In this document: piece after piece, positions 8,631 to 61,552 of the stretch
How the letters are laid out: each line of letters begins with the position of its first letter
How positions within the stretch are numbered: the stretch's first letter is position 1
Source of the DNA: Flavobacteriales bacterium
Lineage (GTDB): Bacteria > Bacteroidota > Bacteroidia > Flavobacteriales_D > Sanyastnellaceae
DNA: 64,000 nt
NCBI GenBank assembly: GCA_044354975.1
Contig: JBIKZA010000001.1
Coordinates: forward strand, 11,094-75,093
Reading direction: 5' to 3'
The notes under the pieces: generated by a model
Database searches by the model: none
The model's input: the letters and a program-made list of their open reading frames with translations, nothing else
What the model was told of the DNA's origin: nothing
Translations under genes and position numbers: made by a program

Positions 8631-8650
8631 TCGATAAATACTTACTGAAA

Positions 8651-8677
8651 AGGGTTGGCTTGGGTCAACCCTTTTTT
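8651..8677 (+). terminator. rho-independent terminator after tonB
   Basis: Hairpin agggttg/caaccct followed by a T6 run. Confidence 0.7.
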
Positions 8678-8690
8678 ATTTTTGAATTGA

Positions 8691-9287
8691 ATGTTACCCT
8701 TTCACACAGATAGCAACGAAGCGGGTTTAGATGAAGCCGGAAGAGGCTGCCTCGCAGGCCCAGTGGTTGCTGCTGCAGTTATACTTCCTGAAGGATTTTC
8801 ACATCCTTGGTTGAACGATTCGAAGCAAATGAGCAAGAAGCACAGAGATGAGCTTCGTGTTATCATTGAAAAAGAAGCGATAGCATGGAACGTAGAGTTT
8901 GTTTCACCACAGGAAATAGATGAGCTGAATATCCTTCGCGCTTCAATAACAGCAATGCAACGTGCAACCATGAAATTGAAGAAAAAACCTTCTCATCTTT
9001 TAGTTGATGGAAATCGATTTTATGCCATGGAAGGGTATGCGCATACCTGTATGATTAAAGGCGATGCGCGCTTTATGAATATTGCCGCGGCTTCGGTTTT
9101 AGCGAAAACACATCGCGATGAATTCATGTTGAATCTGCACGAAAAACACCCGCATTATAAGTGGGATCGAAACATGGGATATCCAACGAAGGCACATCGT
9201 GCAGCAATTTCAGAATTCGGGGCGTGTGAGCATCACCGCATGACCTTCGCTCTTTTGCCAAGGTCGTTGCAAATAGAAGCGCTTTGA
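8691..9287 (+). CDS. rnhB: ribonuclease HII
   Basis: 198 aa with [17 protein letters not shown] catalytic motif. Confidence 0.9.
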
Positions 9288-9303
9288 TGCCTATTTTCGC
9301 ATT

Positions 9304-10038
9304 ATGCAGTTAAGAGCTGAAAACATTCAAAAGATTTATGGAAAGCGCACGGTTGTAAAGGACGTGTCGTTTCACGTTGAGCAAGGCGAAATCGTTGGAT
9401 TACTCGGTCCGAATGGTGCGGGTAAAACGACGAGTTTTTACATGGTAACCGGATTAATTCAACCCAATCATGGAAAAGTGTTGCTCGATGATAGTGAGAT
9501 TACGCATATGCCTATGTTTCAACGCGCGAAGATGGGTGTTGGCTATTTGCCGCAAGAAGCTTCTATATTTCGCTCGTTATCCGTTGAAGACAACATTAAA
9601 GCTGTGCTTGAATTGACGGGGCTTTCAAAGAAAGAGCAAACGGAAAAACTAGATGCGTTATTGGAAGAATTTGGTCTTACCGAAAGAAGAAAATACATTG
9701 GCCACCACCTCAGTGGCGGTGAAAGAAGACGGACTGAAATTGCTCGGGCATTGGCAACGGACCCGAAATTTATTTTGTTAGACGAACCCTTTGCAGGCGT
9801 TGATCCCATTGCCGTTGAAGACATTCAGCGAATCGTTTGGAAACTGAAAGAACGCAACATTGGAATTCTCATTACCGACCACAATGTGCAAGAAACACTG
9901 ACCATTACGGATCGTGCTTACCTCTTATACGACGGAAATATTTTGAAGTCCGGAAGCGCGGAAGAGTTGGCTTCCGACGAGCAAGTGCGTCGTGTTTATT
10001 TGGGTCAAAACTTCGTTTTAAGAGCCCGAAAAGAATAA
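9304..10038 (+). CDS. lptB: LPS export ABC transporter ATP-binding protein
   Basis: 244 aa with Walker [10 protein letters not shown] and signature LSGGERRR; LptB-like length and C-terminus. Confidence 0.88.
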
Positions 10039-10040
10039 GC

Positions 10041-10058
10041 CCCCGAGAGTCTCGAGGG
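10041..10058. terminator. GC-rich hairpin between convergent lptB and sod (candidate bidirectional terminator)
   Basis: ccccgag-agt-ctcg(a)ggg stem, with T-rich sequence on both sides when read on either strand. Confidence 0.45.
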
Positions 10059-10080
10059 CCTTAGTATTTATTTGGAAGAA

Positions 10081-10680
10081 TTACTTCGCGCTGTTGTAGC
10101 GAGCTTCAACCACTTCCCAATTGATAACATTGAAAAAAGCTTGAATGTAATCTGGACGTCTGTTCTGATAGTTCAGGTAATACGCGTGTTCCCACACGTC
10201 TAAACCTAAAATTGGAAATCCAGAGCAGCCAACATTTGGCATCAATGGGTTGTCTTGGTTTGGAGTTGAGCAAACTTCAAGTTTTCCGTCTTTCACACAC
10301 AACCAAGCCCATCCTGAACCGAAGCGAGTCATTGCAGCCTTAACGAACAGTTCTTTGAATGCGTCGAATGATCCGAAAGCCTCGTTAATGGCGGCTTCCA
10401 TAGTTGGAGTTACTGTTCCGCCGTTTGGCGAAAGCAATTCCCAAAATAGGTTGTGATTGTAAAATCCACCACCGTTGTTTCTAACCGCAGGGGTGTCGAA
10501 ACCTTTCACCATAACTTCTTCGATAGAAAGATTTTCTAAATCGGTTCCAGCGATAGCGTTATTTAAGTTTGTTGTGTAAGCAGCATGGTGCTTACTGTGA
10601 TGTATTTCCATCGTGCGAGCATCGATGTTTGGCTCAAGGGCATCGTACGAATAAGGTAAATTTGGTAGTTCGAATGACAT
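10081..10680 (-). CDS. sodA: Fe/Mn superoxide dismutase
   Basis: 199 aa; [28 protein letters not shown] and DVWEHAYYL signatures. Confidence 0.95.
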
Positions 10681-10761
10681 AGTTATTTTTTTGCGAAATT
10701 AACCCAAAACAAACGCCACAAAAAAATTCTTCTCAATTCGTTAATATGCTTGATGCGCGCT

Positions 10762-10769
10762 TATCTTTG
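10762..10769 (+). promoter_or_regulatory. candidate Bacteroidota -7 promoter box (TATCTTTG) for mreB
   Basis: Exact TAnnTTTG match 50 nt upstream of the mreB ATG. Confidence 0.35.
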
Positions 10770-10818
10770 TAACTCTATCGAAGCGTTTTCAATTAACCTA
10801 TTTTAAAGAAGGAAAAGC

Positions 10819-11844
10819 ATGGGACTTTTTAGTTTCCTAACACAAGAAATTGCCATTGACTTGGGCACGGCAAACACAATCATTATCATGAACGATAAGG
10901 TTGTTGTAGATGAACCATCTATCATTGCTCGCGACCGAGTTTCTGGTAGAACCGTCGCTGTTGGTCGATTAGCGCAACAGATGCATGGTAAAACGCACGA
11001 GAATATCAAGACAATTCGTCCATTGAAAGACGGTGTAATCGCCGATTTTCACGCTGCAGAAGACATGATTAAAGGGTTAATCAAAATGATTAACAAAGGC
11101 GGAAAAATGTTTCAACCTTCTTTGAGAATGGTAATATGTATTCCATCTGGAATTACTGAAGTTGAAAAACGCGCGGTTAAGGATTCTGCAGAACACGCAG
11201 GTGCGAAAGAAGTTTATTTAATTCACGAGCCAATGGCCGCTGCAATTGGTATTGGTGTTGACGTTGAAGAGCCGATGGGAAATATGATTATTGACATCGG
11301 AGGTGGTACATCTGAAATTGCAGTTATTGCTTTGGGTGGAATTGTAACAGACAAAAACATTCGTGTAGCTGGAGATGAACTTACACAAGACATCGAAGAT
11401 TACATGCGTCGTCATCACAACATTTTAATTGGAGAGCGAACAGCAGAACAAATTAAAATTGAGGTTGGTGCTGCAATTGACGACCTAGAGGTTCCGCCAG
11501 CTGATTACAGCGTTCGCGGACGTGACTTGGTTACAGGTATTCCAAAAGAAATTATGGTTTCCTACAAAGAGATTGCTCATGCTTTAAACAAATCAATTTC
11601 TAAAATTGAAGAAGCAATCATGAGTTGTTTGGAAAATACACCGCCGGAATTATCAGCAGATATTTTCAAGACCGGTATTTATTTAGCCGGTGGTGGGGCA
11701 TTGCTCCGTGGATTAGATGTGCGGATCAATCGCAAAACGAAATTGCCTGTTCATGTTGCCGACGATCCGTTGCGTGCAGTAGCAAGAGGTACAGGAATTG
11801 CGTTGAAAAACATCAATCGCTTCCAATTCTTAATGCGCGAGTAA
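10819..11844 (+). CDS. mreB: rod shape-determining protein MreB
   Basis: 341 aa actin-like ATPase with DLGTANT and DIGGGTSEIA motifs. Confidence 0.95.
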   Translation: MGLFSFLTQEIAIDLGTANTIIIMNDKVVVDEPSIIARDRVSGRTVAVGRLAQQMHGKTHENIKTIRPLKDGVIADFHAAEDMIKGLIKMINKGGKMFQPSLRMVICIPSGITEVEKRAVKDSAEHAGAKEVYLIHEPMAAAIGIGVDVEEPMGNMIIDIGGGTSEIAVIALGGIVTDKNIRVAGDELTQDIEDYMRRHHNILIGERTAEQIKIEVGAAIDDLEVPPADYSVRGRDLVTGIPKEIMVSYKEIAHALNKSISKIEEAIMSCLENTPPELSADIFKTGIYLAGGGALLRGLDVRINRKTKLPVHVADDPLRAVARGTGIALKNINRFQFLMRE

Positions 11845-15021: not shown

Positions 15022-16343
15022 TGGCAGCGTCAGGGAAACAGAACTTACAACTCGACTGGGGCACTATTGCGCTCTACGGGACGTTGGTTTTGTTCGGATG
15101 GCTTTCTATTTATAGCGCTGCGTTTAATCCGCTACTGCCAAGTCCGTTCACGTTTTCCGAAGAGTACGGAAAACAGTTGGTATGGATAGGGGCTTGTATC
15201 TTTTTAATCGTAGTCATCCTTTATTTAGACGCGGAGGTGTTCAATAAACTAGCCGTTTACATTTACTTCTTTTTTGTGCTTTTGCTCATGCTCGTCTTGG
15301 TCATAGGAAAGGAAGTAAATGGAGCGAAGGCGTGGTTTGGAATTGGTGATTTTGGAATTCAGCCGAGTGAGTTTTCTAAAATTGGCGTCGGGCTATTTCT
15401 GTCCAAATTTATTTCCAGCTCCGGTTTGCAGTTGAAGAATTTGCGAATGCGTATTCAGGCTTTTGCAATCATTGGATTACCGGCGTTTTTGATTTTGCTT
15501 CAACCCGATGTGGGTTCGTTATTGACTTTCCTTGCTTTCATTTTGGTGATGTATCGTGAAGGGATGTCGGGCACTGTCCTGATCGCAGGATTTGCCAGTG
15601 TGGTCATTGGAACTTTAAGTATTGTTATTGGCGCGGGCAGAACGACTTACCCTTATTTCGGAGAGATGAGTTCTATTTGGACTTTTATTGTTTCCCTTTT
15701 CGCGTTATCAATTCTTGCTTTGATTTTCGTTCGGAATTTTGTTGTCCCACGATCAAGAAGATTGCTTTATTCTGTGGTTGTCATCTCGATGGTGCTAGCC
15801 TCGAGTCTAGCTTTTTCGATTAACTACATCGTAGATAACGTGCTTGAAAAACACCACAAAGAGCGTATTTACGTTATGCTTTCACTTCCGGTTGAACGAC
15901 AAGATGCGACCTACAATTCCGAGATGGCGAAAATTACAGTAGGCTCCGGGGGATTAATTGGAAGAGGGTTTCATCAAGGACCAATGACCCAAAATAATTA
16001 CGTGCCTGAGCAATGGACCGACTTTATTTTTAGTGCAGTCGCAGAAGAGTGGGGATTCCTTGGAAGTGTAACTGTAATTCTTATGTTCTTCACCCTTATA
16101 TACCGATTGGTGGTATTGGCAGAGCGGCAACGTTCTCAATTTTCTAGGGTGTACGGCTATTGCGTAGCAGCAATCATTTTTATGCACCTCCTCATTAATA
16201 TTGGAATGGTGCTCGGGTTAGCGCCTATTATTGGTATTCCTCTGCCCTTCTTTAGTTACGGCGGATCTTCGCTTATGGCGTTTACGATTCTACTCTTCAT
16301 TATGATTCGTTTGGACGCTGAGCGGCTCAGCATCTTTAGATGA
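15021..16343 (+). CDS. rodA: SEDS-family peptidoglycan polymerase RodA
   Basis: 440 aa FtsW/RodA/SpoVE-type polytopic protein; TAATG overlap with mrdA. Confidence 0.9.
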   Translation: MAASGKQNLQLDWGTIALYGTLVLFGWLSIYSAAFNPLLPSPFTFSEEYGKQLVWIGACIFLIVVILYLDAEVFNKLAVYIYFFFVLLLMLVLVIGKEVNGAKAWFGIGDFGIQPSEFSKIGVGLFLSKFISSSGLQLKNLRMRIQAFAIIGLPAFLILLQPDVGSLLTFLAFILVMYREGMSGTVLIAGFASVVIGTLSIVIGAGRTTYPYFGEMSSIWTFIVSLFALSILALIFVRNFVVPRSRRLLYSVVVISMVLASSLAFSINYIVDNVLEKHHKERIYVMLSLPVERQDATYNSEMAKITVGSGGLIGRGFHQGPMTQNNYVPEQWTDFIFSAVAEEWGFLGSVTVILMFFTLIYRLVVLAERQRSQFSRVYGYCVAAIIFMHLLINIGMVLGLAPIIGIPLPFFSYGGSSLMAFTILLFIMIRLDAERLSIFR

Positions 16344-16413
16344 TGACCCTTCGGGATGACCACTTCGTGGATGACGCTGCGCGATGACCCTTTGGGATGA
16401 CGCTGCGCGATGT
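16339..16413 (+). repeat. mini-hairpin array, ATGA linker (5 units)
   Basis: tga|ccc-ttc-ggg|atga|ccac-ttc-gtgg|atga|cgc-tgc-gcg|atga|ccc-ttt-ggg|atga|cgc-tgc-gcg|atg. Starts on the rodA stop codon. Confidence 0.85.
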
Positions 16414-16513: not shown

Positions 16514-19500
16514 ATGAAATCTCTACACACATTATTCCTTTCAGTTTTACTTGCACTCACTTGCAGCTTAGCATTAGCAAATAATTCTTTTTTCATTGAA
16601 AACAAGGGGCAGGTAAAAAACGAAAAGGGGATTCCGGATCGCTCCGTATTGTATACATACGCGACTTCTGAAATGGATGTGTTCATTCGCAAGACAGGTT
16701 TAACCTATCAATTCAAGCGTTATAACAACGACGGGGTTTACGCGGAACGTGTAGACGTGAATTGGAAGGGGTGTTCTGAGGGCTCTGTTGCGAAAGGATT
16801 ACAAGAGTTGGGTTACACAGAGAATTATTTTGTTGATGGAAAATCAAATTCGGCAAACGCGTTTCAAGAAGTGCGCGTTTCGAATATTTATCCGGGCGTG
16901 GATTGGAGAATGTACATTACTGAAGCTGGATTGAAATACGAGTTCATTGCGGAAAGCGGCCAAGCTGCAAAACAAATTAGCATGCAAGTTGAAGGGGCGG
17001 AAGAATTGGAAAAGTGTTCCAACGGCAGCATTCGAATTAAAGGTGAAATGGGACAAGTGAGCGATGCGAAGCCGGTTTATTTCAATCAAGAAAAAAGTAT
17101 TGAAGGAAATTTTATTGTGAATGGAAAGTCAATTCAATTTGAAATTCCTTCCAACACCGTTGGTGCAATTGTTTTAGACCCAGAGGTTATTTGGACTTCT
17201 TACTACGGCGGGACAGGCCTAGATGATTCACGTGGAATTTTCACTGACGCGAATGGCGATTATTATTTGACAGGCGCCACCAATTCAACCACATTAATAT
17301 CATACTTGGGTTATCAAGGGTTATTGGGAGGGAGCAATGATGTGTATGTAGTGAAGTTCAACGCGTTGAATCAACGCTTGTGGGCAACATACTACGGCAG
17401 AACGGGTAACGATGTTGGAAACGATATTGTTGTTGATCCTTACGGAGGAATTTATGTAGCAGGAAGCACAAGTTCAATGTCCGCATTCGCGGTGAATAGT
17501 CAGCAGACTGTTTATGGTGGCGGCCCGAAAGATGGATTTGTTTTGAAATTGTTTCCAGACGGAACGTTGGAGTGGTGCTCTTATTACGGCGGCAGTGGCG
17601 ACGAGCAATTGACATCGTTGTCTGTCGGATTTCAAGGCGAGGTCTATTTCATTGGAGAAACGAGTTCGACTGATTTGATTACTTTGGACGCCTTGCAAAG
17701 TGCATATGGCGGAGGTGCAAGTGATTTTTATTTGGGGATGATAGATCCGGGAGGGTTCCTTCTTCGCTACACTTATTTTGGTGGCACCGGGGCGGAATTG
17801 GCGGGAGACCTTGTTGCGACAAGCGATATCAATTTGTATTTCACGGGAACTACAAGTTCTGCTGCAGGAATGGCTGCAGGTGGCGCACAGAACACATACG
17901 GCGGCGGGGCGTATGACGGCTTCTTTGCTAAGATAAACAGTGGGAATTTAATTGAATGGGCTTCCTACATAGGTGGAGCCAGTGAAGACAGAGCGGAAGC
18001 CATTCATGTTGCGGGCGACCAGCTTTACATAGTTGGAAAATCCGGCTCAATAAGTGGAATTTCTACCCCCGGTGCTGCGCAAGTGTTCAATGGAGGAGGA
18101 AGTTTCGACGGCTTCTTAGCTTCTTATATGATTGATGGAATGGTGAATTGGAAAACCTATTACGGCGGTTCTGGAAACGAATCGCTTTGGGGAGTTACAA
18201 CAGACGCTGCAGGAAGTGTTTTCATTACTGGGAATTCAACCTCTTCCAATATGGGAGATAATGGTTTTCAGAATGCCAATGGCGGATTAACCGACATTGT
18301 TTTTGCAGGATATTCTATTGATGGTATTCGTTATTGGAGTTCGTATTTAGGCGGAATCGCTGATGAGTCGGTGAGTGACCTTGTGATTAATTCAAATCAG
18401 GAAATGTATTTTGCTGGAAGTTCGGCATCTTCAAATCTTGCTGTAGGTGGGTACGAAGCCACGAACAATGGCGGTGGTGAAGCGTTCTTCGGGAAGTTGA
18501 AAAACTGCGATTATCCTTATTTAACCGTTCACATTACCGGCGACACTATATTCTGCGACGGTAAGTCTGCTATTTTATGCGCAGGTGGTGCCGATCATTT
18601 CCTGTGGTCAACAGGCGACACAACAGCGGCAATAGAAGTAGACGCGCCTATGGTTGTTTATCTTATTGGAACAAACACACCTGGCTGCAGCACACGCTCC
18701 GACGATTACACCTTTACCGTTTTGCCACAACCAACGATTAATGTAACTGCAGATGGTCCTTTAACGTTTTGTGGTGATGTTTCCGTAAATCTTACTGCCT
18801 CTGGAGGTATTGGCTATGAATGGAACAGTGGTCCAACAACGGAAACAATCACTGTTAATGAGTCTGGAAATTACGCGTGCACTGGAATAAATGAATTCGG
18901 GTGCGAAGGAAGTAGCAACCAGTTGAGTGTTGAAGTCTTCGATTTGCCAGAAGTTGCCATGGGACTTTCCACCGACAGTATTTGTATATCGGCCGATCCG
19001 GTGGGAATTGTAGGACTGCCATTGGGCGGCACTTATGTAGGAGATGGAATAGTTGGAAACTCAATTGACCCCGGTTTAGCTGGCGGTGGAGCGCACCAAG
19101 TTTATTACACATTTACAGATGCGAACGGTTGTTCGAATTCGTCTGATGTGTTCGACTATTTCGTGTTATTCGAGCCAACAGTTCTTTTCCTTTCGCAAGA
19201 CACGGTAATGGCTGGAGATCCTCCGGTTGAAATGACAGGAATTCCTTCAGGCGGATATTACACCGGGTTTGGGGTAAGCGGAAATTTATTTTATCCTGAA
19301 TTAGTAGCCCCAGGATTTTATCAGGTTACCTATAACTATGTAGACGATAATGGCTGTACCAATAGAGACACACAGGTTATTTATGTTTGTTGTGTGGGAA
19401 TAGATGAATTTGCATCGGTAGAACCGAAGTTATATCCGAATCCGACTGAGGGGTTGTTGAATTTCACTTTGGGAACTCATTCTGCCCGTGCGTATCGCAT

Positions 19501-20226: not shown

Positions 20227-20250
20227 GCTTAGGTTAGTTAGGTATGAGAC

Positions 20251-20276
20251 AACCCCTTCTCGCGAAGGGGTTTTTT
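20251..20276 (+). terminator. rho-independent terminator
   Basis: aaccccttc-tcgc-gaaggggtt hairpin followed by a T6 run. Confidence 0.8.
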
Positions 20277-20291
20277 CGTGAAATAAATAAT

Positions 20292-20324
20292 GCAGTTTGT
20301 GTACCTATATAAGCAGTTTGTGTA
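20292..20324 (+). promoter_or_regulatory. perfect 12-bp direct repeat GCAGTTTGTGTA x2 with 21-bp period upstream of the hybrid kinase gene
   Basis: Copies at 20292-20303 and 20313-20324, 16-48 nt upstream of ATG 20340. Confidence 0.4.
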
Positions 20325-20339
20325 TAAATTAGCAAGCCC

Positions 20340-25046: not shown

Positions 25047-25280
25047 TTGCTTTGCAAGGTTCTACGAAAGATGCAATTATAAGATGCAAGCAAGATTCTT
25101 CGAAAGATGTGTTACAAGATGCTCCGCAAGATTCTTCGAAAGATGTGTTACAAGATGCTCCGCAAGATTCTTCGCAAGATGTGTTACAAGATGCTCCGCA
25201 AGATTCTTCGAAAGATGCCTTCGGCAAGTATTTCGTTAGCGTAGCTTCTTTTGAAAAATCTTACGAAGGATCTTTCAACA
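25047..25280. repeat. mini-hairpin array, AGA linker (15 plus-oriented units incl. a 36-bp higher-order repeat x3, then about 2 degenerate inverted TCT units)
   Basis: aga|ttc-ttc-gaa|aga|tgt-gtt-aca|aga|tgc-tcc-gca| repeated. Starts 1 nt after the folA stop. Centre is cttttgaaaaatctt at 25248-25262. Confidence 0.9.
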
Positions 25281-25283
25281 AAA

Positions 25284-25622
25284 CTATTTATTCTTCTTTG
25301 ATTTAGGCTTTACGAGGTCGAAGCTGTGTTGAACAAGTTCTCTCAATAACTTGTCTGAAACGTCGCTATTTGGAACGACAAGGTTCCAATGTTTTTTGCT
25401 GGTGTGATAACCGGGTTGAATGCCGTTGTATTCTTCACGAAGTTCGATTGCTCTTTCGGGGTCGCATTTGAGGTTGATTCCTTTTTCGAAGTTATCGAGG
25501 TTAACCATAGCGAAGATTTTATTTTCAATTCGAAAAACCAAAGCACTTTCGTCGAAGGGTAAATCGGAAGTTACCTCTTCACTAATGGCTTGACACGTTT
25601 CAAAAAAATCTTCTATGTTCAT
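25284..25622 (-). CDS. MmcQ/YjbR family DNA-binding protein
   Basis: 112 aa starting at MNIEDFFETCQ (ATG 25622, 1-nt overlap with the upstream stop); YjbR-like pattern. Confidence 0.7.
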   Translation of the reverse strand: MNIEDFFETCQAISEEVTSDLPFDESALVFRIENKIFAMVNLDNFEKGINLKCDPERAIELREEYNGIQPGYHTSKKHWNLVVPNSDVSDKLLRELVQHSFDLVKPKSKKNK

Positions 25623-29211: not shown

Positions 29212-29997
29212 ATGAAACTAACGCTGGAAAAAGACGGGCGACGCTATTCATTTCAAACCGAAAAAGGAATGGACCTTAGCATTTCTATGAATCCAAATGG
29301 TCCGCGCGCTTGGTACGTAGCGCCTATGCGCATTGAACCCGTGCGCACTGAACAATTCTTGGGTTCTGTAGCCGAAGGAGGGGCAGTGAATTTTCGTGAT
29401 GTGTATTTTAATCCACATGGACACGGCACGCACACGGAGAATGTGGGACATATCATTGATACGGATTTCCCCGTGGTGAATAGCATTGGGTCTTCGCATT
29501 TTATGGCGAAGCTGATAACGGTGGAGTTGATGAAACAAGATGCTATGCAAGATTCTACGAAAGATGTTTCACAAGATGCTTCGCAAGGGGATTGGGTAGT
29601 TAACGAGCAAAGTCTGGAGGGTTTTGATTTGAAAGTTGAAGCGCTTATTATTCGCACAAAACCGAATGATCATTCGAAAGTGCAGAGACAATACTCAGGT
29701 ACGAATTTTCCTTATTTAACAATTGGAGCTATGCAGCGTATTGTTGATGCGGGTGTTCAGCATTTGCTCATTGACTTGCCCAGTGTAGATCGCGAGGAAG
29801 ATGGCGGAGCGTTGGAGGCACATCATTTGTTTTGGAATGTTCCGGCAGAGCCGAACTTTCAGAAAACCATTACAGAGTTGATTTACGTTCCAAATGAAAT
29901 TGCAGATGGGACTTATCTGTTGAATTTGCAAGTTTCAAATTTCGCTAACGATGCTGCTCCGAGTAGACCTATGCTTTTTGATCTAGCGGAAGAATAA
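29212..29997 (+). CDS. cyclase-family (kynurenine formamidase-like) protein carrying an in-frame repeat insertion
   Basis: HGHGTHTENVGH metal-site-like motif and family-like C-terminal half. Contains the AGA mini-hairpin units at 29538-29587. Confidence 0.65.
   Translation: MKLTLEKDGRRYSFQTEKGMDLSISMNPNGPRAWYVAPMRIEPVRTEQFLGSVAEGGAVNFRDVYFNPHGHGTHTENVGHIIDTDFPVVNSIGSSHFMAKLITVELMKQDAMQDSTKDVSQDASQGDWVVNEQSLEGFDLKVEALIIRTKPNDHSKVQRQYSGTNFPYLTIGAMQRIVDAGVQHLLIDLPSVDREEDGGALEAHHLFWNVPAEPNFQKTITELIYVPNEIADGTYLLNLQVSNFANDAAPSRPMLFDLAEE
29538..29587 (+). repeat. mini-hairpin array, AGA linker, 4 units, inside a CDS and in frame
   Basis: aga|tgc-tat-gca|aga|ttc-tac-gaa|aga|tgt-ttc-aca|aga|tgc-ttc-gca|ag, encoding QDAMQDSTKDVSQDASQ. 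Confidence 0.85.
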
Positions 29998-35665: not shown

Positions 35666-35823
35666 CGCAGAGCGTAGATGCTTTGCAAGATTCCGTTGGA
35701 AAGATGTTGCACAAGATTCCGTTGGAAAGATGTTGCACAAGATTCCGGAGGAAAGATACTTCGCAAAAATTACCTTTTGAAAAATCTTGCATAGCATCTT
35801 GTGAAACATCTTACGAAGTATCT
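35666..35823. repeat. mini-hairpin array, AGA linker (about 8 plus-oriented units, centre, 3 inverted TCT units)
   Basis: aga|tgc-ttt-gca|aga|ttcc-gtt-ggaa|aga|tgt-tgc-aca|... cttttgaaaaatctt (35774-35788) ...tct|tgc-ata-gca|tct|tgt-gaa-aca|tct|tac-gaa-gta|tct. Spans exactly from the ispG stop to the purK stop. Confidence 0.9.
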
Positions 35824-36964
35824 AGGATACAACCCTTACTTCTTTCAAGAATCGTCTGGCAATATCCTTCGCGTCTTCTAGATTCGTGTTGCACACCGTA
35901 ATGTGTCCCATTTTACGGAAGGGTTTGGTGTCTTCCTTTCCATATAAATGAATATAAGCACCTTCGGTGTGAAGGACGTCTTCTATGTTTTCGTAGCGCG
36001 CTTTTCCTTCAAATCCTTTTTCACCCAAGAGGTTAATCATAACAGCTGGAGTGCGAAGTCCTGTGCTGCCTAACGGCATGTTCAAGATCGCACGAAGATG
36101 CATACCGTATTGCGAAACGAAGCATGCTTCAATGGTGTGGTGGCCGCTGTTGTGCGGACGAGGAGCGATTTCATTCACCAATAAATTTCCATCTTCGGTG
36201 AGGAATAATTCAATGGCTAATAAACCCACGTGTTCGAGTTTGTTGGCAATCTCGGTTGCGATTTTTTTCGCGTTGATTTCTATTTCAACGTTCACGTTGG
36301 CAGGAGAGAAAATGAATTCTACTAAGTTGGCTTCCGGATTGAATTCCATTTCCACCAAAGGAAAAGTAGCCAGTTCTCCGCTTTCATTTCGAGCAACAAT
36401 AACAGCCAGTTCTTTTACGAATGGAACGAATTCTTCCAATACGCTGGGCGCATTGAAGGCCGATTTGAATTCCGCTACCGTGCGAAGTGGAGTTACTCCT
36501 TTGCCGTCGTATCCGCCTTTGCGAAGCTTCTGCATGAACGATCCCTCATCTTTAAACAACATCGCATCTTCTGTATTAGCGATCAGGTGGAAAGGAGCCG
36601 TCGGAATGTTGTTCGCTGTGTAAAATTGTTTTTGAAGACCTTTGTCTTGAATGATGCGAAGGGCTTGTGGTGTTGGGAAAACTTTCTTTCCAAGTCTTTC
36701 CAATTCTTCGAGAGCTTCAATGTTCACGTGTTCAATTTCAATGGTCAGAACATCAACTGTTTTTCCGAAATCGAGTACGGTTTGATAGTCGTTAAAATTT
36801 CCAACAACGAAATTATTCGCAAGGTCAGCGCAAGGTGCATTTGAAGAAGGGTCTAAAACAGAGATATGAATATTGAAGTTAACGGCTTCTTGAATAAGCA
36901 TTCTTCCTAATTGTCCACCACCTAAAATTCCGAGTTTAGTGGTTAGGTCTATCGTGTGATTCAT
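35822..36964 (-). CDS. purK: 5-(carboxyamino)imidazole ribonucleotide synthase
   Basis: 380 aa ATP-grasp protein; N-terminal LGILGGGQLGRM and PurK-like sequence throughout. Confidence 0.92.
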   Translation of the reverse strand: MNHTIDLTTKLGILGGGQLGRMLIQEAVNFNIHISVLDPSSNAPCADLANNFVVGNFNDYQTVLDFGKTVDVLTIEIEHVNIEALEELERLGKKVFPTPQALRIIQDKGLQKQFYTANNIPTAPFHLIANTEDAMLFKDEGSFMQKLRKGGYDGKGVTPLRTVAEFKSAFNAPSVLEEFVPFVKELAVIVARNESGELATFPLVEMEFNPEANLVEFIFSPANVNVEIEINAKKIATEIANKLEHVGLLAIELFLTEDGNLLVNEIAPRPHNSGHHTIEACFVSQYGMHLRAILNMPLGSTGLRTPAVMINLLGEKGFEGKARYENIEDVLHTEGAYIHLYGKEDTKPFRKMGHITVCNTNLEDAKDIARRFLKEVRVVS

Positions 36965-39806: not shown

Positions 39807-40775
39807 ATGAAAAATATTGCAGTGGTTTGTGGGGGGTATAGTGGCGAGTCAGTTGTTTCTATGCGCAGCGCGAAGATGGTGATGGAGAATATTGATCGTT
39901 CGAAGTTCGAGCCCACGCAGATTGTGATTGAAGAAAAGCGTTGGTATGCGTTGGTGAACGAAACGGAAGTTGCAGTTGATCGCAATGATTTTTCAATAGT
40001 TGTAGATGGAACGAAAACCACGTTCGACGGGGTGTTCATGATTGTTCATGGTACACCAGGAGAGAATGGATTGCTGCAAGGATATTTCGATACGATTGGA
40101 ATAAAATACACGACAGGCGATGTCTTGAACATGGCGTTAACGTTCAATAAGAAAGCGACTACACGTACATTAGGTGCTATGGGTTATCGCGTTGCGCGTT
40201 CAATTGTTATTCGCAAGGAAGAAGAAATTACAGCAGCGGAAGTGGTTGCGAAAGTGGGTTTGCCTTGTTTCGTCAAACCGAATTGTGGTGGAAGCTCCAT
40301 TGGCACTTCGCGCGTGAATGAAGAGGGCGGAATTATGGAGGCTATTTCTCGCGCAAGAAATGAAGACGAAGACATTATTGTGGAAGAATTTATATCTGGA
40401 AGGGAAGTCACTTGTGGCGTTATTGTTATGAATGGAAAGCCAACGGCCTTGCCTGTTACAGAGATTGTAAGCGAGACGGAGTTTTTCGATTATCAAGCGA
40501 AGTACGAAGGGAAGAGCAAGGAGATTACTCCCGCTCCAATTAGTGAATTTCACTACGCGCGTGTTCAGGAATTGTCTGCTCGTATTTACACCGATTTAAA
40601 TTGTGGCGGAATGATCCGCGTAGACTTCTTGTTACCCGACGAAGAACCTTCTGTAATTGAAGTGAACACCGTACCTGGTTTCAGCGCAGCCTCTATTATT
40701 CCTCAGCAAGCCGCGGTTATTGGAATGAGTAAGATGGAGTTGATATCAACCGTACTGGCTTCAATCACTTTGTGA
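39807..40775 (+). CDS. ddl: D-alanine--D-alanine ligase
   Basis: 322 aa ATP-grasp protein; GGYSGESVVS, HGTPGENG and NTVPGF motifs. Confidence 0.93.
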   Translation: MKNIAVVCGGYSGESVVSMRSAKMVMENIDRSKFEPTQIVIEEKRWYALVNETEVAVDRNDFSIVVDGTKTTFDGVFMIVHGTPGENGLLQGYFDTIGIKYTTGDVLNMALTFNKKATTRTLGAMGYRVARSIVIRKEEEITAAEVVAKVGLPCFVKPNCGGSSIGTSRVNEEGGIMEAISRARNEDEDIIVEEFISGREVTCGVIVMNGKPTALPVTEIVSETEFFDYQAKYEGKSKEITPAPISEFHYARVQELSARIYTDLNCGGMIRVDFLLPDEEPSVIEVNTVPGFSAASIIPQQAAVIGMSKMELISTVLASITL

Positions 40776-40931
40776 TCAATCATCTTCGATGATCAATCTG
40801 ACTTGGTCAGATCAATCACTGCGTGATCAATTGCTCTGCAATCAATCCTACGGAGTAATCGGAACGATTGATCGCAACGCGATTGATTCGAAGAATTGAT
40901 CTGACGAAGTCAGATTCAGAAGTACTGATTC
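40761..40931. repeat. mini-hairpin array, ATCAAT linker (6 plus-oriented units, then about 6 inverted ATTGAT units)
   Basis: tcaat|cac-ttt-gtg|atcaat|catc-ttc-gatg|atcaat|ctgac-ttg-gtcag|atcaat|cac-tgc-gtg|atcaat|tgc-tct-gca|.. then tcg-gaa-cga|ttgat|cgc-aac-gcg|attgat|..|ctgac-gaa-gtcag|att|cag-aagta-ctg. The outer units lie inside the last codons of ddl and glyQS. Confidence 0.88.
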
Positions 40932-42445
40932 AACGCCACAACCTTCCTAACCGCTTCATGCAAGTCTGCAATTGGAATACGCTCCTGTTGCATGCTGTCT
41001 CTGTGACGAATGGTAACGCAGTTGTCTTCCAAGGTTTCGTTGTCTACCGTTACACAAATAGGAGTTCCAATGGCGTCTTGTCTTCTGTATCTGCGACCAA
41101 TGGCGTCTTTGTCGTCGTATTGCAAGTTGAAGTCTAACTTCAATAGATCTACAATTTCTTTTGCTTTTTCAGGAAGCCCGTCTTTCTTCACCAATGGCAA
41201 TACCGCCACTTTCACAGGTGCCAAGGCCGCTGGAATGCGAAGAACCGTGCGCTCACTTCCATCTTCCAACTTCTCTTCCACAAATGAACTCGACAAAACA
41301 GCCAAGAACATGCGGTCTAATCCGATAGAGGTTTCAATGACATACGGAACAAAACTCTCGTTCGTTTCCGGATCGAAATAACGCAATTTCTTCCCACTGA
41401 ATTCTTCGTGTTTTTTCAAATCGAAATCAGTACGAGAATGTATTCCTTCCAACTCTTTGAATCCCATTGGGAAGTTGAACTCAATGTCGCAAGCCGCATT
41501 GGCGTAGTGCGCCAGCTTCAAGTGGTCGTGGAACTTGTAATTTCCTTCACCCAACCCTAGAGCATTGTGCCATTTAATACGCTCGTTCTTCCAGTAGTTG
41601 TACCACTCCATTTCAGTACCCGGCTTCACAAAATATTGCATTTCCATTTGTTCGAATTCACGCATGCGGAAAATAAACTGACGTGCAATAATTTCATTGC
41701 GAAATGCTTTTCCAATTTGTGCAATTCCGAATGGAAGTTTCATTCTTCCCGTCTTTTGAACGTTCAAGAAATTCACGAAAATTCCTTGCGCTGTTTCCGG
41801 ACGTAAATAAATAATTCCAGCTTCGCCGCTAACTGCACCGAGTTCTGTTTTGAACATGAGGTTAAACTGACGAACATCTGTCCAGTTGCGCGATCCAGTC
41901 TCTGGATCTGCAATTTCACAGTCTTCAATCAATTGCTTCAATCCTTCTAAATCACTCGCTTCCAACGCCACTTTCATGCGCGTTTTCACAGCATCTATTT
42001 TCTCTTGTGCACGAAGTACATTCGGATTCGTTGCACGGAATTGCTCTTCGTCGAATGCATCGCCAAAACGACTTTTCGCTTTCTCTATTTCTTTGGTGAT
42101 TTTCGCTTCGCTTTTCGCCATGTAGTCTTCCAACAACACGTCTGCACGGTAGCGTTTCTTACTGTCTTTGTTGTCAATCAACGGATCGTTGAAAGCATCT
42201 ACGTGTCCGCTTGCTTTCCATGTGGTCGGATGCATGAAGATCGAAGCATCAATTCCCACAATGTTCTGGTGCATGCGCGTCATAGCGGTCCACCAGTAGT
42301 TCTTGATGTTGTTTTTCATTTCAACACCCAACTGACCGTAGTCGTAGGCAGCCGAAAGGCCATCGTAAATTTCAGAGGAAGGAAATACAAATCCGTATTC
42401 CTTTGCGTGCGAGATTACCGCTTTTAATTTGTCTTCTTGTGCCAT
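40916..42445 (-). CDS. glyQS: glycine--tRNA ligase (dimeric class II)
   Basis: Starts MAQEDKLKAVISHAKEYGFVFPSSEIYDGL; class II motifs and an anticodon-binding C-terminus. ORF-track start 42538 rejected. Confidence 0.95.
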   Translation of the reverse strand: MAQEDKLKAVISHAKEYGFVFPSSEIYDGLSAAYDYGQLGVEMKNNIKNYWWTAMTRMHQNIVGIDASIFMHPTTWKASGHVDAFNDPLIDNKDSKKRYRADVLLEDYMAKSEAKITKEIEKAKSRFGDAFDEEQFRATNPNVLRAQEKIDAVKTRMKVALEASDLEGLKQLIEDCEIADPETGSRNWTDVRQFNLMFKTELGAVSGEAGIIYLRPETAQGIFVNFLNVQKTGRMKLPFGIAQIGKAFRNEIIARQFIFRMREFEQMEMQYFVKPGTEMEWYNYWKNERIKWHNALGLGEGNYKFHDHLKLAHYANAACDIEFNFPMGFKELEGIHSRTDFDLKKHEEFSGKKLRYFDPETNESFVPYVIETSIGLDRMFLAVLSSSFVEEKLEDGSERTVLRIPAALAPVKVAVLPLVKKDGLPEKAKEIVDLLKLDFNLQYDDKDAIGRRYRRQDAIGTPICVTVDNETLEDNCVTIRHRDSMQQERIPIADLHEAVRKVVALNQYF

Positions 42446-42467
42446 AACGGCTGCAAAGATAGGACTA

Positions 42468-43154
42468 TTAAATTCTTTCGAGAAGTGCTTCGAAGATTTC
42501 TCTTCCGTCGGTGTTTTCCAATTCGAAATCGGCTGCACGCTCCGGGTGAGGCATCATTCCAAACACATTTTTACCTGCATTGCAAATACCCGCGATGTTG
42601 TTCAACGAGCCATTCGGATTGAAGTCTTCATTTACCACACCGTCTGCAGAGCAATAGCGGAATAACACTTGATCATTGTCTTCGATTTGCTTCAACACAT
42701 CGGCTGGAGCAAAGAAGTTTCCTTCTCCGTGAGCAATTGGAATTTGAAATGCTTTTTCGCGATCCAATCCGGCGGTTAAAACCGCGCTGGTTGAAGCCGC
42801 TTTTAAGTGAACATTTTTACAAATAAATTTTCTAGTAGTGTTGTGCAACAAGGCTCCTGGAAGCAATTTCGCTTCCGTTAAAATTTGAAATCCGTTGCAA
42901 ATTCCCATCACATATCCACCGCGATTTGCGTGTGCTACTACTTCTTCCATAATTGGAGAAAAGCGCGCAATGGCTCCGCTGCGTAGGTAATCGCCGTAGC
43001 TGAATCCGCCAGGAACAAACACGAAATCGCAACCTTGAAGGTCGCGGTCTTTGTGCCAAAGTTTTACCACTTCTTGTCCCATGATGTGCGACATGGAATA
43101 CACCAAATCTTCATCACAATTGCTACCTGGAAAAACTACGACACCAAATTTCAT
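42468..43154 (-). CDS. purQ: phosphoribosylformylglycinamidine synthase subunit PurQ (glutaminase)
   Basis: Starts MKFGVVVFPGSNCD; nucleophile context GICNGFQ; HPER near the C-terminus. Confidence 0.93.
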   Translation of the reverse strand: MKFGVVVFPGSNCDEDLVYSMSHIMGQEVVKLWHKDRDLQGCDFVFVPGGFSYGDYLRSGAIARFSPIMEEVVAHANRGGYVMGICNGFQILTEAKLLPGALLHNTTRKFICKNVHLKAASTSAVLTAGLDREKAFQIPIAHGEGNFFAPADVLKQIEDNDQVLFRYCSADGVVNEDFNPNGSLNNIAGICNAGKNVFGMMPHPERAADFELENTDGREIFEALLERI

Positions 43155-47831: not shown

Positions 47832-47996
47832 GAATGCGTTGCGAAGGCGAATGGCTTTGCGAAGGCAACAAGCATTGCGAGGGTGAATTCTTCACGAGGG
47901 TCCTTCGGACGAGGGTTGCAAGCAACGAGGGTCTTCGACTTTCGCAATTACGCATCCCGATAGCTATCGGGAGGAATAAAGCCGAAGGTTTTCAAT
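47832..47996. repeat. mini-hairpin array, GAAG/GAGG linker (plus-oriented) followed by inverted GGAAT-type units
   Basis: gagg|gtgaa-ttc-ttcac|gagg|gtcc-ttc-ggac|gagg|gttgc-aa-gcaac|gagg|gtc-ttc-gac| then cccgatagctatcggg and aaagcc-gaa-ggtttt. Confidence 0.85.
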
Positions 47997-48189: not shown

Positions 48190-48252
48190 ATCATAAAATA
48201 GGAATTACGAATCCCGATAGCCATCGGGAGGAATAAAGCCGGAGGTTTTCAA
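48190..48252 (-). repeat. isolated copy of the GGAAT-type unit pair
   Basis: ggaattacgaatcccgatagccatcgggaggaataaagccggaggtttt is near-identical to 47945-47995. Confidence 0.8.
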
Positions 48253-48804: not shown

Positions 48805-48969
48805 ATGGAAAAAACGTCATTACAAAATAGCACCCCAATCCCTGCAGAGGTTATTTCAACGCCTATTCCCACTTCCGAAAAATTTCAGGAAGCGAAAAAA
48901 AGATTGCCAGAAACACTGGCAAAACTTAAAGCTTTTAATGAAAAGCAAAAGCTTGAGCAGAAGAGTTAG
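48805..48969 (+). CDS. possible small ORF (54 aa), hypothetical
   Basis: MEKTSLQNSTPIPAEV..KLKAFNEKQKLEQKS read by hand. Its stop codon is the first nt of the GAAT array. Confidence 0.3.
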   Translation: MEKTSLQNSTPIPAEVISTPIPTSEKFQEAKKRLPETLAKLKAFNEKQKLEQKS

Positions 48970-49165
48970 AATGTCTTCGACGAATGTGCAAGCACGAATG
49001 TTGCAGGGCAACGAATGTTCTCTGAACGAATGCCTGCGGCGAATGTCTTCGACTGTCATTCAACAACGCAGTTCTAATTACGAAGTAGGAATTATGAAAT
49101 AGGAATTACTTAGTTCCAATTACGCAGTAGGAATAAAACCGAAGGTTTTCCAATAACGCAGTTAA
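48969..49165. repeat. mini-hairpin array, GAAT linker (6 plus-oriented units) then inverted GGAAT/CCAAT-linked units (about 6)
   Basis: gaat|gtc-ttc-gac|gaat|gtgc-aa-gcac|gaat|gttgc-agg-gcaac|gaat|gttc-tct-gaac|gaat|gcc-tgc-ggc|gaat|gtc-ttc-gac ... aat|tac-gaa-gta|ggaat|tat-gaa-ata|ggaat|..|aaaacc-gaa-ggtttt|ccaat|aac-gca-gtt. The last unit overlaps the rlmF stop. Confidence 0.88.
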
Positions 49166-50049: not shown

Positions 50050-50195
50050 TTTTTGTCAATGTTTGTTGAGTTCTTCGTTCAATTGTAACCTGAACTTCCG
50101 CGTCAATTCGGGACTTTTCAGAAACTTGCTGAAAGGTAGCTTTACCCTGTTTCCTGACTTCCCGAAGAGTATATGCCATGCTTTTTATAATTCGA

Positions 50196-50203
50196 CAAAC
50201 CTA
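50196..50203 (-). promoter_or_regulatory. candidate -7 promoter box (TAGGTTTG) upstream of rlmF leader
   Basis: Exact TAnnTTTG match on the minus strand, 17 nt upstream of the small-ORF ATG at 50179. Confidence 0.3.
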
Positions 50204-50211
50204 GTCAAAAA

Positions 50212-50247
50212 AGAACAAAAAAAATGACCCGCGTTTCGCGGGTCATT
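50212..50247 (-). terminator. rho-independent terminator after the 665-aa T9SS cargo gene
   Basis: atgacccgcg-aaac-gcgggtcat hairpin followed by a T8 run on the minus strand. Confidence 0.85.
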
Positions 50248-50268
50248 AGTTGATTTGCTAAGGCGGAA

Positions 50269-57432: not shown

Positions 57433-57470
57433 ATTATTTGAATATTCAACTTGTCAAGTTTTATTTTGAG

Positions 57471-57600
57471 GTTGCTTATAACGTTTGGCAGCTACCCGAA
57501 GGTGGCGATTTCGGAGCACTTAACTGTCACCAAGCACAAACTTTGATGGAAGCACATAGCTTGATTTAAACCCTGAGCCGCCACTTTTGGGTAGGTGCTG
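57471..57600 (+). repeat. structured inverted-repeat element, copy A (candidate ncRNA or MITE)
   Basis: 15-bp stem tacccgaaggtggcg/cgccacttttgggta plus cagc/gctg and tcgg/ctga extensions. All pairs are canonical or G:U on the plus strand. Confidence 0.6.
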
Positions 57601-57661
57601 TTAGCGTTTCGTTTGCTCAATATGTGTTGATTATTAACTGTTATTCAATTCTCAGAAATCC

Positions 57662-59143: not shown

Positions 59144-59208
59144 TTTTTGTTTTACTTGTTAATACTCGCTTTTACTTGTTTTCTGGCTCGTTTCGGTTTT
59201 TACAATGA

Positions 59209-59343
59209 ACGCTAACGTTTTGCAGCTACAAGAAGTTGGCGATTTCGGAGACGAAAACTGTCTGCCACCACAGAACTTGATACGAAGCACAAAACTTCAT
59301 TTAACCACTGAACCGCCAATTTCTTGTAGGTGCTGTTATGTGT
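59209..59343 (+). repeat. structured inverted-repeat element, copy B
   Basis: Stem tacaagaagttggcg/cgccaatttcttgta. Shares gcagctac, ggcgatttcggag, aactgtc, gaagcaca, atttaa and gtaggtgctgtta blocks with copy A. Confidence 0.6.
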
Positions 59344-59360
59344 AGCCTTTCTTTGGTCGG

Positions 59361-61336: not shown

Positions 61337-61345
61337 ATTAAGAAT

Positions 61346-61377
61346 AAAAAAAGCCGCTTCATTGAAGCGGCTTTTTG
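61346..61377 (-). terminator. rho-independent terminator after tRNA-Gln
   Basis: aaaagccgcttc-aatg-gaagcggctttt hairpin followed by a T run on the minus strand. Confidence 0.8.
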
Positions 61378-61381
61378 ATCG

Positions 61382-61452
61382 TTGCCCGAACAGGATTCGA
61401 ACCTATATAAACTGCACCAAAAACAGTTGTCCTGCCATTAGACGATCGGGCA
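61382..61452 (-). tRNA. tRNA-Gln (anticodon TTG)
   Basis: Hand-folded cloverleaf: acceptor tgcccga/tcgggca, anticodon arm actgt-ttTTGgt-gcagt, T arm atagg-ttcgaat-cctgt. Confidence 0.85.
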
Positions 61453-61552
61453 ATCTCACTTCTCCTTCGAAAAGCGACTGCAAAATAAATACTTTCTTTT
61501 CATAACACCAAGTATTTTTCTGTTTCTATCTTCGTTTTATAATAATAAGCCT

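Follow-up and report, generated by a model that had tools for sequence, protein, structure and literature searches.

The junction of the convergent ddl and glyQS genes, in a 64-kb stretch of DNA from an uncultured freshwater Bacteroidota (hereafter the window), raises the question of what kind of element the tandem ATCAAT-linked units lying there represent, and whether these units have built, or invaded, the C-termini of both encoded enzymes, as the original prediction for this DNA proposed. ddl lies on the plus strand and glyQS on the minus strand, with a 140-bp spacer between them (40776-40915). Our analysis showed that the ddl-glyQS array is one copy of a genome-wide repeat class, a point that the prediction had overlooked. 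The arrays very probably form a lineage-specific, dispersed class of tandem "linker plus mini-palindrome" repeats, and this judgement covers the descriptive and the evolutionary part of the statement jointly.

The repeat unit consists of a constant 5-8-nt linker and a perfect 7-13-nt palindrome with a stem of 2-5 bp and, usually, a 3-nt loop. We collected 72 distinct segments lying between linkers, drawn from seven linker families; 66 form perfect hairpins from end to end, and 57 of these have 3-nt loops. The stems of these 66 hairpins measure 2 bp in 24 cases, 3 bp in 26, 4 bp in 13 and 5 bp in 3; the closing pair is C:G in 49, and pairing is strictly Watson-Crick, with essentially no G-U pairs. 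The linkers vary by family (ATCAAT, AAGAT, CGAATG, CGAGGG, GATGAC, ATTCC and GTTGG), and at least 60 different palindromes occur between them.

The loops follow a strand rule. Read in the sense of the linker, the same as that of the gene whose stop codon precedes the array, they are TTC (18), TGC (8), TAC (6) and TCC (3), i.e., 35 TNC loops versus 3 GNA loops. At convergent gene pairs such as ddl-glyQS, the plus strand shows TNC loops in the left half of the array and GNA loops in the right. Since the TNC loops stand in the sense of the gene, the template strand bears d(C-GNA-G) mini-hairpins. Such hairpins combine a closing C:G pair with a G-N-A triloop on a single strand; 35 of the 57 triloops are GNA on the template strand, where GCGAAGC, GCGCAGC, GCGTAGC and GCGGAGC are all present. 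These four motifs belong to the extra-stable DNA mini-hairpins (PMC13037366). In d(GCGNAGC), a 2-bp stem suffices, with a melting temperature of 76.5 C, and nearest-neighbour DNA parameters do not model the stability of these hairpins (PMC13037366).

At the junction itself, ddl (39807..40775, plus strand) encodes a D-Ala-D-Ala ligase of 322 aa, identified from its open reading frame (ORF) and the Pfam families listed for the identical product. The glyQS ORF (40916..42538, minus strand) encodes a class II glycyl-tRNA synthetase, and its true start is probably an internal ATG, giving the 509-aa product called on L082 (L-numbers are labels of the relatives' sequences compared with the window). 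The final five ddl codons, gct tca atc act ttg, followed by tga, form the first repeat unit (40761..40774, plus strand), in which the linker-like TCAAT (40761-40765) precedes cac-ttt-gtg (40766-40774). This unit encodes S-I-T-L, and the ddl stop codon TGA (40773-40775) straddles the boundary between the unit and the linker. Its orthologues read cac-gaa-gtg (SITK*) in L092 and cac-tga-atg (SITE*) in L093. The sense half-array (40775..40853, plus strand) has five exact ATCAAT linkers, at 40775, 40792, 40811, 40826 and 40841, and the palindromes catc-ttc-gatg, ctgac-ttg-gtcag, cac-tgc-gtg, tgc-tct-gca and cc-tac-gg; the count of six plus-oriented units given earlier therefore reads as described.

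Unit orientation flips at AGTAAT (40854..40859), a degenerate form of the palindromic ATTAAT, which joins the ATT of ATTGAT to the AAT of ATCAAT and occupies the centre position in L092, L093 and L086. The inverted half-array (40860..40913, minus strand, sense for glyQS) contains cg-gaa-cg, cgc-aac-gcg, tc-gaa-ga and ctgac-gaa-gtcag, with three exact ATTGAT linkers at 40867, 40882 and 40895, and it ends (40913) 2 nt before the glyQS stop codon. Its run cgcaacgcg-attgat-tcgaaga-attgat adjoins a different gene in L086. An inverted run of about six units had been proposed; the inverted run is there, but its units number four clear ones, at most five. The left and right ctgac units are indeed near mirror images, the reverse complement of the right one matching the left at 12 of 13 bases.

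The arrangement ATCAAT-N5-15-ATCAAT was observed 6 times versus 0.36 expected, and 0 of 100 shuffles reached 6; elsewhere in the window the ATCAAT hexamer shows no enrichment (60 versus 65 expected). The junction is identical base for base in three independent metagenome assemblies (ENA and JGI) and is, therefore, no assembly artefact. A coding repeat in the spacer is ruled out by stop codons in all six frames, and that explanation holds solely for a 12-nt-period copy inside a cyclase-family ORF. Tandem Repeats Finder reported merely 74% matches and 19% indels for the ddl-glyQS array; the palindromic parts differ between units of one array.

Based on Tandem Repeats Finder and a k-mer chain scan, seven arrays of the same architecture were identified in the window, where the other linkers are AAGAT, CGAATG, CGAGGG, GATGAC and ATTCC. 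We also applied a strict detector, which asks for a 5-mer present in 4 or more copies at intervals of 10-22 nt, with perfect hairpins making up at least 75% of the segments between copies and with 2 or more different segments. It returned 7 arrays in the 64 kb of the window and 20 arrays in 133 kb (15 per 100 kb) of metagenome relatives whose Ddl is at least 88% identical. It returned none in 437 kb of relatives with Ddl 43-78% identical, none in 928 kb around the glyQS loci of 80 other Bacteroidota genomes, and none in the shuffled window. The 11 k-mer chains found in those 928 kb were rejected as arrays of this kind, being coding repeats or chance. The closest GTDB glycyl-tRNA synthetase (GlyRS), among the best 80 matches, is 86% identical.

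Within the clade, an array is present in 27 of the 75 3′ spacers of at least 30 nt, and 29 of 44 arrays begin no more than 75 nt downstream of the stop codon of an ORF that has the same orientation and 90 or more codons. At several genes, the stop codon is embedded in the first or last linker (window 16341-16347, 35820-35824 and 48966-48973; L138 ~5914-5920): TGATGAC follows a rodA-like gene, the purK TAG lies in ATCT-A, TAG plus AATGT follows a 55-aa ORF, and TAA lies within TAAGAT after folA in L138. The window genes are ordinary core genes; no transposase, reverse transcriptase or HUH gene, and no RAYT (REP-associated tyrosine transposase) gene, is present among the ~58 window ORFs, which represent 64 kb of the genome.

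The units are strongly constrained in place. Between the window and L092, 47% of the four-fold degenerate sites of ddl differ, and the five orthologous left-hand units show 0 changes at 63 linker and stem positions versus 6 at 15 loop positions, a linker-plus-stem result with a probability of ~4e-18 under neutrality. The linkers alone show 0 changes in 29 positions, and no compensatory change was found in 17 orthologous stem pairs, which argues against a purely mutational upkeep of the palindromes by arm-to-arm template switching. In these alignments, the constancy of linkers and stems points to either purifying selection or conversion from other copies.

To address the C-termini, the Ddl and GlyRS tails and the junction were compared across relatives and outgroups. 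The conserved Ddl core ends with ..LIS(T/A)V(L/I), and the residues beyond it differ even among strains with 95-98% identical Ddl (EHCV*, GTTLL*). The tails ASITL*, ASITK*, ASITE* and ASITAGD* accompany ATCAAT arrays, the codons tca-atc-ac being the linker plus the first stem; EHCV* occurs where cac-tgc-gtg and TAATTGGAA follow, and GTTLL* where GTTGG/aac-NNN-gtt units follow. In array-free outgroups, Ddl ends with ..I(D/S)S(S/C)(L/F)* (..SSCF* among them) or ..G*. In L091, the ddl frame passes through a single hairpin into an inverted linker whose TGA serves as the stop codon, an end that may be read as a deletion within the array. Since the Ddl tail co-varies with the array type, it derives from the repeat and is exchanged together with the array; the last 4-6 codons of Ddl have been rewritten by array turnover.

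The GlyRS tail, ..VV(A/S)LN(Q/K)YF*, is kept beside ATTGAT (window, L092), CATTCG (L085, L087) and CCCTCG (L095) arrays, so its overlap with the hairpin-like sequence is coincidental. The 16 terminal glyQS nucleotides of L095 are identical to those of the window, though its Ddl is just 82% identical; L092 encodes NQYF* without the hairpin (ttt taa), and the length of the GlyRS tail is usual for the family. The sequence in question (40914..40930, minus strand) comprises ATT, cag-aagta-ctg (40917-40927) and ATT, and corresponds to the glyQS stop codon and codons F, Y, Q and N. It had been taken for the last unit of the array; its 5-nt loop, the bare ATT on each side and its glyQS codons do not agree with this, and, as judged from the alignments, it is conserved coding sequence, hairpin-like by chance, and no repeat unit. 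The original prediction was correct that SITL* and NQYF* are true ORF ends and that the first unit encodes the last residues of Ddl. Its wider proposal, that both C-termini derive from the repeat, stands for Ddl, whose tail tracks the array, but not for GlyRS, whose NQYF/NKYF ending is conserved independently of the repeat.

Most of the sister arrays of the window lie at gene ends as well. The GATGAC array (16342..16412, plus strand) has five linker copies with cc-ttc-gg, cac-ttc-gtg, gc-tgc-gc and cc-ttt-gg, and begins inside the TGA of a rodA/ftsW-family gene. Between folA and yjbR (25054..25274), ~13 AAGAT units are followed by inverted ATCTT units before yjbR (minus strand); this array has a 12-nt period and a 36-nt super-repeat, and an orthologue exists in L138. 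The array between ispG/gcpE (plus strand) and purK (minus strand), at 35675..35823, consists of AAGAT units, a core and ATCTT units, its last linker overlapping the purK stop codon. At 48969..49150, (A)CGAATG(T) units after the 55-aa ORF are followed by GGAAT-linked tac/tat-NNN-gta/ata units before an rlmF-like gene (minus strand).

The CGAGGGT array (47839..47940, plus strand) is an exception in its context, lying between divergent genes. The DUF1456 and DUF6934 genes diverge from the 550-bp region that holds it, and no ORF is evident that ends upstream of it. The array is either an exception to the rule that arrays follow stop codons or a sign of an unannotated transcript.

The remaining array lies within a coding sequence. 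Four AAGAT units (29536..29587, plus strand) are in frame inside a cyclase/kynurenine-formamidase-family ORF (29212-29997), where they encode the peptide QDAMQDSTKDVSQDASQ and keep their 2-bp hairpins intact. Close homologues of this protein measure 253-312 aa in 4-aa steps, so an enzyme contains a variable number of repeat copies; in L138, a super-repeat of 48 nt (16 aa) is present. A PDB sequence search with the cyclase ORF, made to delimit the insert, gave no match.

Between strains, whole units of the arrays are gained, lost, reordered and inverted, and linker families replace one another. In the gcpE-purK array, one 26-bp two-unit block is missing in L081 (4776-4907), a strain with identical Ddl. 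Relative to L138, the whole window array at this site is a 148-bp block inserted between cgcagag and ctaggatac, with inverted end units (11/14 matching) and a possible 3-bp TAG duplication, in a single filled/empty pair; the other arrays differ by internal units, not by whole blocks. In L089, the CGAATG array that follows the 55-aa ORF is made up of the same units, arranged in another order. In L093, the block lying between ATCAAT and ATTGAT runs in the opposite orientation to that of the window; in L091, all that is left of the array after ddl, which has collapsed, is one hairpin flanked by TCAAT and ATTGA. The number of units per array ranges from 3 to 13 between strains, and block duplications with periods of 26, 36 and 48 nt and one loop flip from ttc to gaa were also observed.

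Linker families different from that of the window follow ddl in L084, at only 14% four-fold ddl divergence from the window, and also in L085-L090. In L087 (38% four-fold divergence), a two-gene cassette flanked by arrays is located between ddl and glyQS (8781-11224); it encodes an ORF6N-domain protein and an AAA_14/DUF4143 ATPase. In L084 and L086, the end of an ORF6N gene follows ddl in place of glyQS. With arrays flanking the cassette, the arrays thus coincide with boundaries of strain-variable gene content.

We consider that these arrays are best read as 3′-end elements of genes, similar to the repetitive extragenic palindromes (REPs) and bacterial interspersed mosaic elements (BIMEs), and we give this reading as a whole a probability of about 0.5. 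Passages in PMC3733652 and PMC2817692 describe the REP/BIME sequences of enterobacteria and pseudomonads, including the system of REP doublets (REPINs) and RAYTs, as short extragenic palindromes that are lineage-limited and occur in regularly spaced clusters and inverted arrangements; the roles proposed for them there concern transcript ends and DNA topology. The arrays resemble them in their extragenic location at 3′ ends or between convergent genes and in their regular clusters (27 of the 75 clade 3′ spacers). A run of units follows the stop codon of a gene in the sense of that gene and, at convergent pairs, a second, inverted run serves the other gene. According to this reading, units would be turned over by slippage or unequal recombination between linkers, and also by template switching between inverted halves. 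The array would act as a structure-dependent cis element that depends on intact hairpins and linkers and, since linkers and stems are maintained in place, it would not be junk. At ddl-glyQS, the two halves might additionally form a ~55-bp hairpin in a read-through transcript. By analogy with BIMEs, the element could function where the transcription unit ends, as a barrier, a 3′-end-defining element or a topological element, a role that we find possible at somewhat less than even odds.

The folding results are mixed in this respect. As RNA, the whole ddl-glyQS region forms a long imperfect inter-arm hairpin (-70.1 kcal/mol, z = -5.8) and the gcpE-purK array a long inter-arm hairpin (z = -3.7); the left half of the ddl-glyQS array gives z = -1.7, and the template strand of this half reaches z = -3.3 in an ordinary DNA fold. 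The mini-hairpins are overwhelmingly non-random in sequence and thermodynamically not meaningful as RNA. A pattern scan found no canonical terminator in 40776-40915, such a terminator being a G+C-rich hairpin (5 bp or longer) with a U tract behind it. Over the whole window, the scan found 26 terminators versus 20.2 expected, which is no enrichment; canonical terminators lie elsewhere in the window at 8631-8690, 20227-20339, 50050-50268 and 61337-61552, and the nearest array-free relative, L001, has one after glyQS. Rfam searches returned only two tRNAs in the whole window at the gathering score, and only noise in 40600-41100 up to E 10 (E values 3-10).

Several observations weigh against the 3′-end reading. 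The one-sided arrays fold as RNA no better than shuffled sequence (z = +0.8 for GATGAC, -0.5 for folA-yjbR and -0.2 for 48966-49161), and an RNA hairpin barrier was rejected as a general mechanism given this weak folding and the 24 of 66 stems of merely 2 bp. The idea that arrays replace canonical terminators was also rejected, since such terminators occur in 9 of 138 spacers of array-free near relatives versus 7 of 75 in the array clade. At gcpE-purK, the syntenic relative L138 has an 8-bp spacer and no array (16597-16606), so this site works without one. If arrays stopped transcription, the in-frame array inside an enzyme gene would be harmful, and the existence of at least 7 linker families argues against one sequence-specific reader. 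Furthermore, no process is known to expose the template strand specifically at gene ends. A broader formulation would accommodate an undescribed class of strand-specific repeat in which template-strand C-GNA-G mini-hairpins on a constant linker are actively maintained, either as a new kind of gene-end signal or by a hairpin-recognising enzyme system, and, as a by-product, rewrite C-termini and insert variable-length peptides into enzymes of a widespread freshwater Bacteroidota lineage; we regard this as possible but doubtful.

One alternative is that the arrays are selfish mobile DNA. The linker families would then be non-autonomous elements, similar to miniature inverted-repeat transposable elements (MITEs) or REPINs, whose hairpin, with the constant single-stranded motif beside it, a dedicated strand-specific enzyme (for example HUH/Y1 or RAYT-like) would recognise and cut, or which would be copied by way of cDNA; the 3′-end sites would be tolerated insertions, and the constancy of units would reflect enzyme requirements and conversion from active copies, with no benefit to the host. 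The clean presence or absence of 148 bp at gcpE-purK, with its inverted end units (11/14) and possible TAG duplication, speaks for such an element, and the strand rule would suit an intermediate of single-stranded DNA. The same families, with cores in common, are found at many loci: the exact 15-mer CTTTTGAAAAATCTT occurs in two window arrays and in L090, and the centre cgttccg-attaat-cc recurs in ATCAAT arrays. The burst-like distribution, limited to one clade, the presence of a different family at the same site in strains with just 14% four-fold ddl difference, and the in-frame copies inside a gene also agree with mobility. Nevertheless, the absence of transposase, reverse transcriptase and HUH genes among the ~58 ORFs of the window, which is only 64 kb of the genome, counts against it, as do hairpins that are much smaller and more varied than known transposase substrates. 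Orthologous arrays, moreover, persist in place with unit order kept across 47% four-fold divergence, and arrays start exactly at stop codons, not at a recognisable target motif. A likeness to IS200/IS605 targets (ATTGAT contains TTGAT, the ISDra2 target, and ATCAAT contains TCAA) was dismissed as coincidence, the linkers of the other families being unrelated. Taken together, we consider selfish DNA an unlikely explanation, although one to be taken seriously.

A neutral origin as hairpin minisatellites appears quite improbable. Arrays would grow by slippage at linker repeats, and the palindromes would be kept by quasipalindrome template-switch correction, with neither function nor enzyme. Passages in PMC13100816 and PMC3820800 describe template switching as homogenising inverted-repeat arms and as stimulated by transcription, and the copy-number polymorphism, the 26/36/48-nt block duplications, the ttc-to-gaa loop flip, the inversion of a block bounded by inverted linkers and the weak RNA folding all agree with such a process. 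However, it predicts compensatory stem changes near the neutral rate, whereas none was found in 17 stem pairs and the linkers changed at 0 of 29 positions, versus 47% at four-fold sites. It also leaves unexplained the 35:3 loop asymmetry, the C:G closing pair, the co-orientation with genes and the recurrence of a few linkers.

Slightly less probable still is a platform or sponge in the 3′ untranslated region, where single-stranded A/U-rich linkers (AUCAAU, AAGAU, GAAUGU) between small hairpins would offer multivalent sites to an RNA-binding protein or RNase, tuning mRNA decay, or Rho loading through the periodic YC dinucleotides of the loops. A strictly conserved motif every 12-19 nt, in mRNA sense and directly after stop codons, speaks for such a reader; at least 7 unrelated linkers, and a unit number that ranges from 3 to 13 between strains, are difficult to reconcile with it. 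Furthermore, the stems, like the linkers, are conserved in sequence, their pairing is exclusively Watson-Crick with virtually no G-U pairs, and in RNA a stem of 2 bp is too short to hold. Finally, chance clustering or an assembly artefact, which the small size of the motif and nothing further would suggest, has a negligible probability: no shuffle reaches the count (0/100), the detector finds no arrays in shuffled sequence, three assemblies are identical, and orthologous arrays occur in further metagenomes.

We found no published account of arrays that combine a constant linker with varied mini-palindromes; our searches returned papers on REP/BIME/REPIN, GTAG/CGTC-tagged palindromes, heptamers, Borgs, MITEs and mini-hairpins. 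REP sequences differ from the present units in being imperfect 20-40-nt palindromes of one conserved family, whereas here the palindromes are perfect, 7-13 nt long and varied, and it is the non-palindromic linker that is constant. The GTAG/CGTC tag of REPs is lacking here, GTAG being incidental and found only in tac-NNN-gta+g units. BIME units alternate in orientation, whereas within a half-array every unit points the same way, in keeping with the upstream gene, and the RAYT gene of REP systems has no counterpart in the window.

The template-strand units share the C:G closing pair and G-N-A loop of the d(GCGNAGC)/C-GNA-G mini-hairpins of Hirao and colleagues (PMC13037366), a likeness by sequence. 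In nature, those mini-hairpins are known from N4 promoters and from the single-strand origins of phages and plasmids, where they occur singly; tandem arrays of them at the ends of chromosomal genes are not known. The TAACTGA tandem heptamers of cyanobacteria, Beggiatoaceae and a few Bacteroidetes (PMC4679880) are likewise lineage-restricted intergenic tandem repeats oriented relative to genes, but they are plain head-to-tail repeats without hairpins, located mostly just upstream of start codons. With CRISPR, the arrays share the regular alternation of a constant and a variable part. CRISPR loci, with their leader and cas genes, differ in that the repeat measures 23-47 nt and is often palindromic and the spacers, of 26-72 nt, are not palindromic; here, the period is 12-19 nt, the linker 5-8 nt and non-palindromic, the "spacers" are 7-13-nt palindromes, dozens of short arrays follow stop codons, and no cas domains were found in the window.

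Pneumococcal BOX is a mosaic element with a variable number of internal tandem modules, and the "BrickBuilt" MITE of P. gingivalis has an internal minisatellite, the latter described in PMC4596501. Both resemble the arrays in being dispersed between genes, in keeping their ends or core conserved and in an internal repeat number that varies with the strain; they differ in their modules of 20-45 nt in identical copies, without a linker plus varied mini-palindrome and with no reported strand rule. Rickettsia palindromic elements are single in-frame insertions of ~100-150 nt. Borg tandem repeats create disordered protein segments (PMC9879509). In both systems, repeat DNA enters coding sequence in frame and so yields new peptide segments or tails of variable length, as it does here in the cyclase insert (253-312 aa) and the Ddl tail; Borg repeats differ in being perfect direct repeats without palindromes. 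Bidirectional intrinsic terminators share the location between convergent genes, and the two ddl-glyQS halves can form a long hairpin; they differ in that flanking U/A tracts are lacking at ddl-glyQS and that other arrays form no such hairpin.

If this description holds, about a third of the gene-end spacers in an abundant uncultured freshwater lineage hold a repeat architecture for which we found no description and whose loop rule matches the one DNA hairpin known to be stable at two base pairs, on the template strand only. The arrays would then provide a natural test bed for whether DNA mini-hairpins form and act in cells. Repeat turnover also yields new protein sequence, both in the tails of Ddl, encoded by an essential gene, and in the 253-312-aa length series of the cyclase family, and the arrays mark sites where strains differ in gene content. 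In practice, they will break or mis-join metagenome assemblies and seed spurious ORFs. Two such array-derived ORFs were observed in the window: one at 25052-25306 (plus strand), an 84-aa "QDSSKDVLQDAP" repeat with no Pfam match, and one of 89 aa at 40868-41137 (plus strand), which begins within the ATTGAT half and extends into glyQS in antisense. Annotation pipelines are likely to call such array ORFs as genes.

An 18-nt perfect palindrome, TCCCGATAGCTATCGGGA, is present at 47955-47972 and 48212-48229 of the window and also downstream of ddl in L087 and L089. Each copy is followed by a GGAATAAAGCCGAAGGTTTTC-like sequence, and the L089 copy replaces an ordinary tac-ttc-gta unit of L084. The pattern suggests a second dispersed element, small and palindromic, that inserts itself into arrays.

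Two other repeats of the window were noted. The intergenic elements at 57433-57661 and 59144-59360 (minus strand) are 74% identical over ~125 nt and lie upstream of a DUF2442 gene and of a small gene with a type IX secretion system (T9SS) tail. They show compensatory differences in a long closing stem (CTACCCAAAAGTGGCG...CGCCACCTTCGGGTAG versus CTACAAGAAATTGGCG...CGCCAACTTCTTGTAG) and have no Rfam match; they may represent a structured RNA or, alternatively, a further family of repeats. Additionally, a CCACCGCCA / CCGCCA tandem repeat (8070-8117) is located inside a TonB-family ORF (7725-8630); presumably, it is the customary proline-rich spacer and has no relation to the hairpin arrays.

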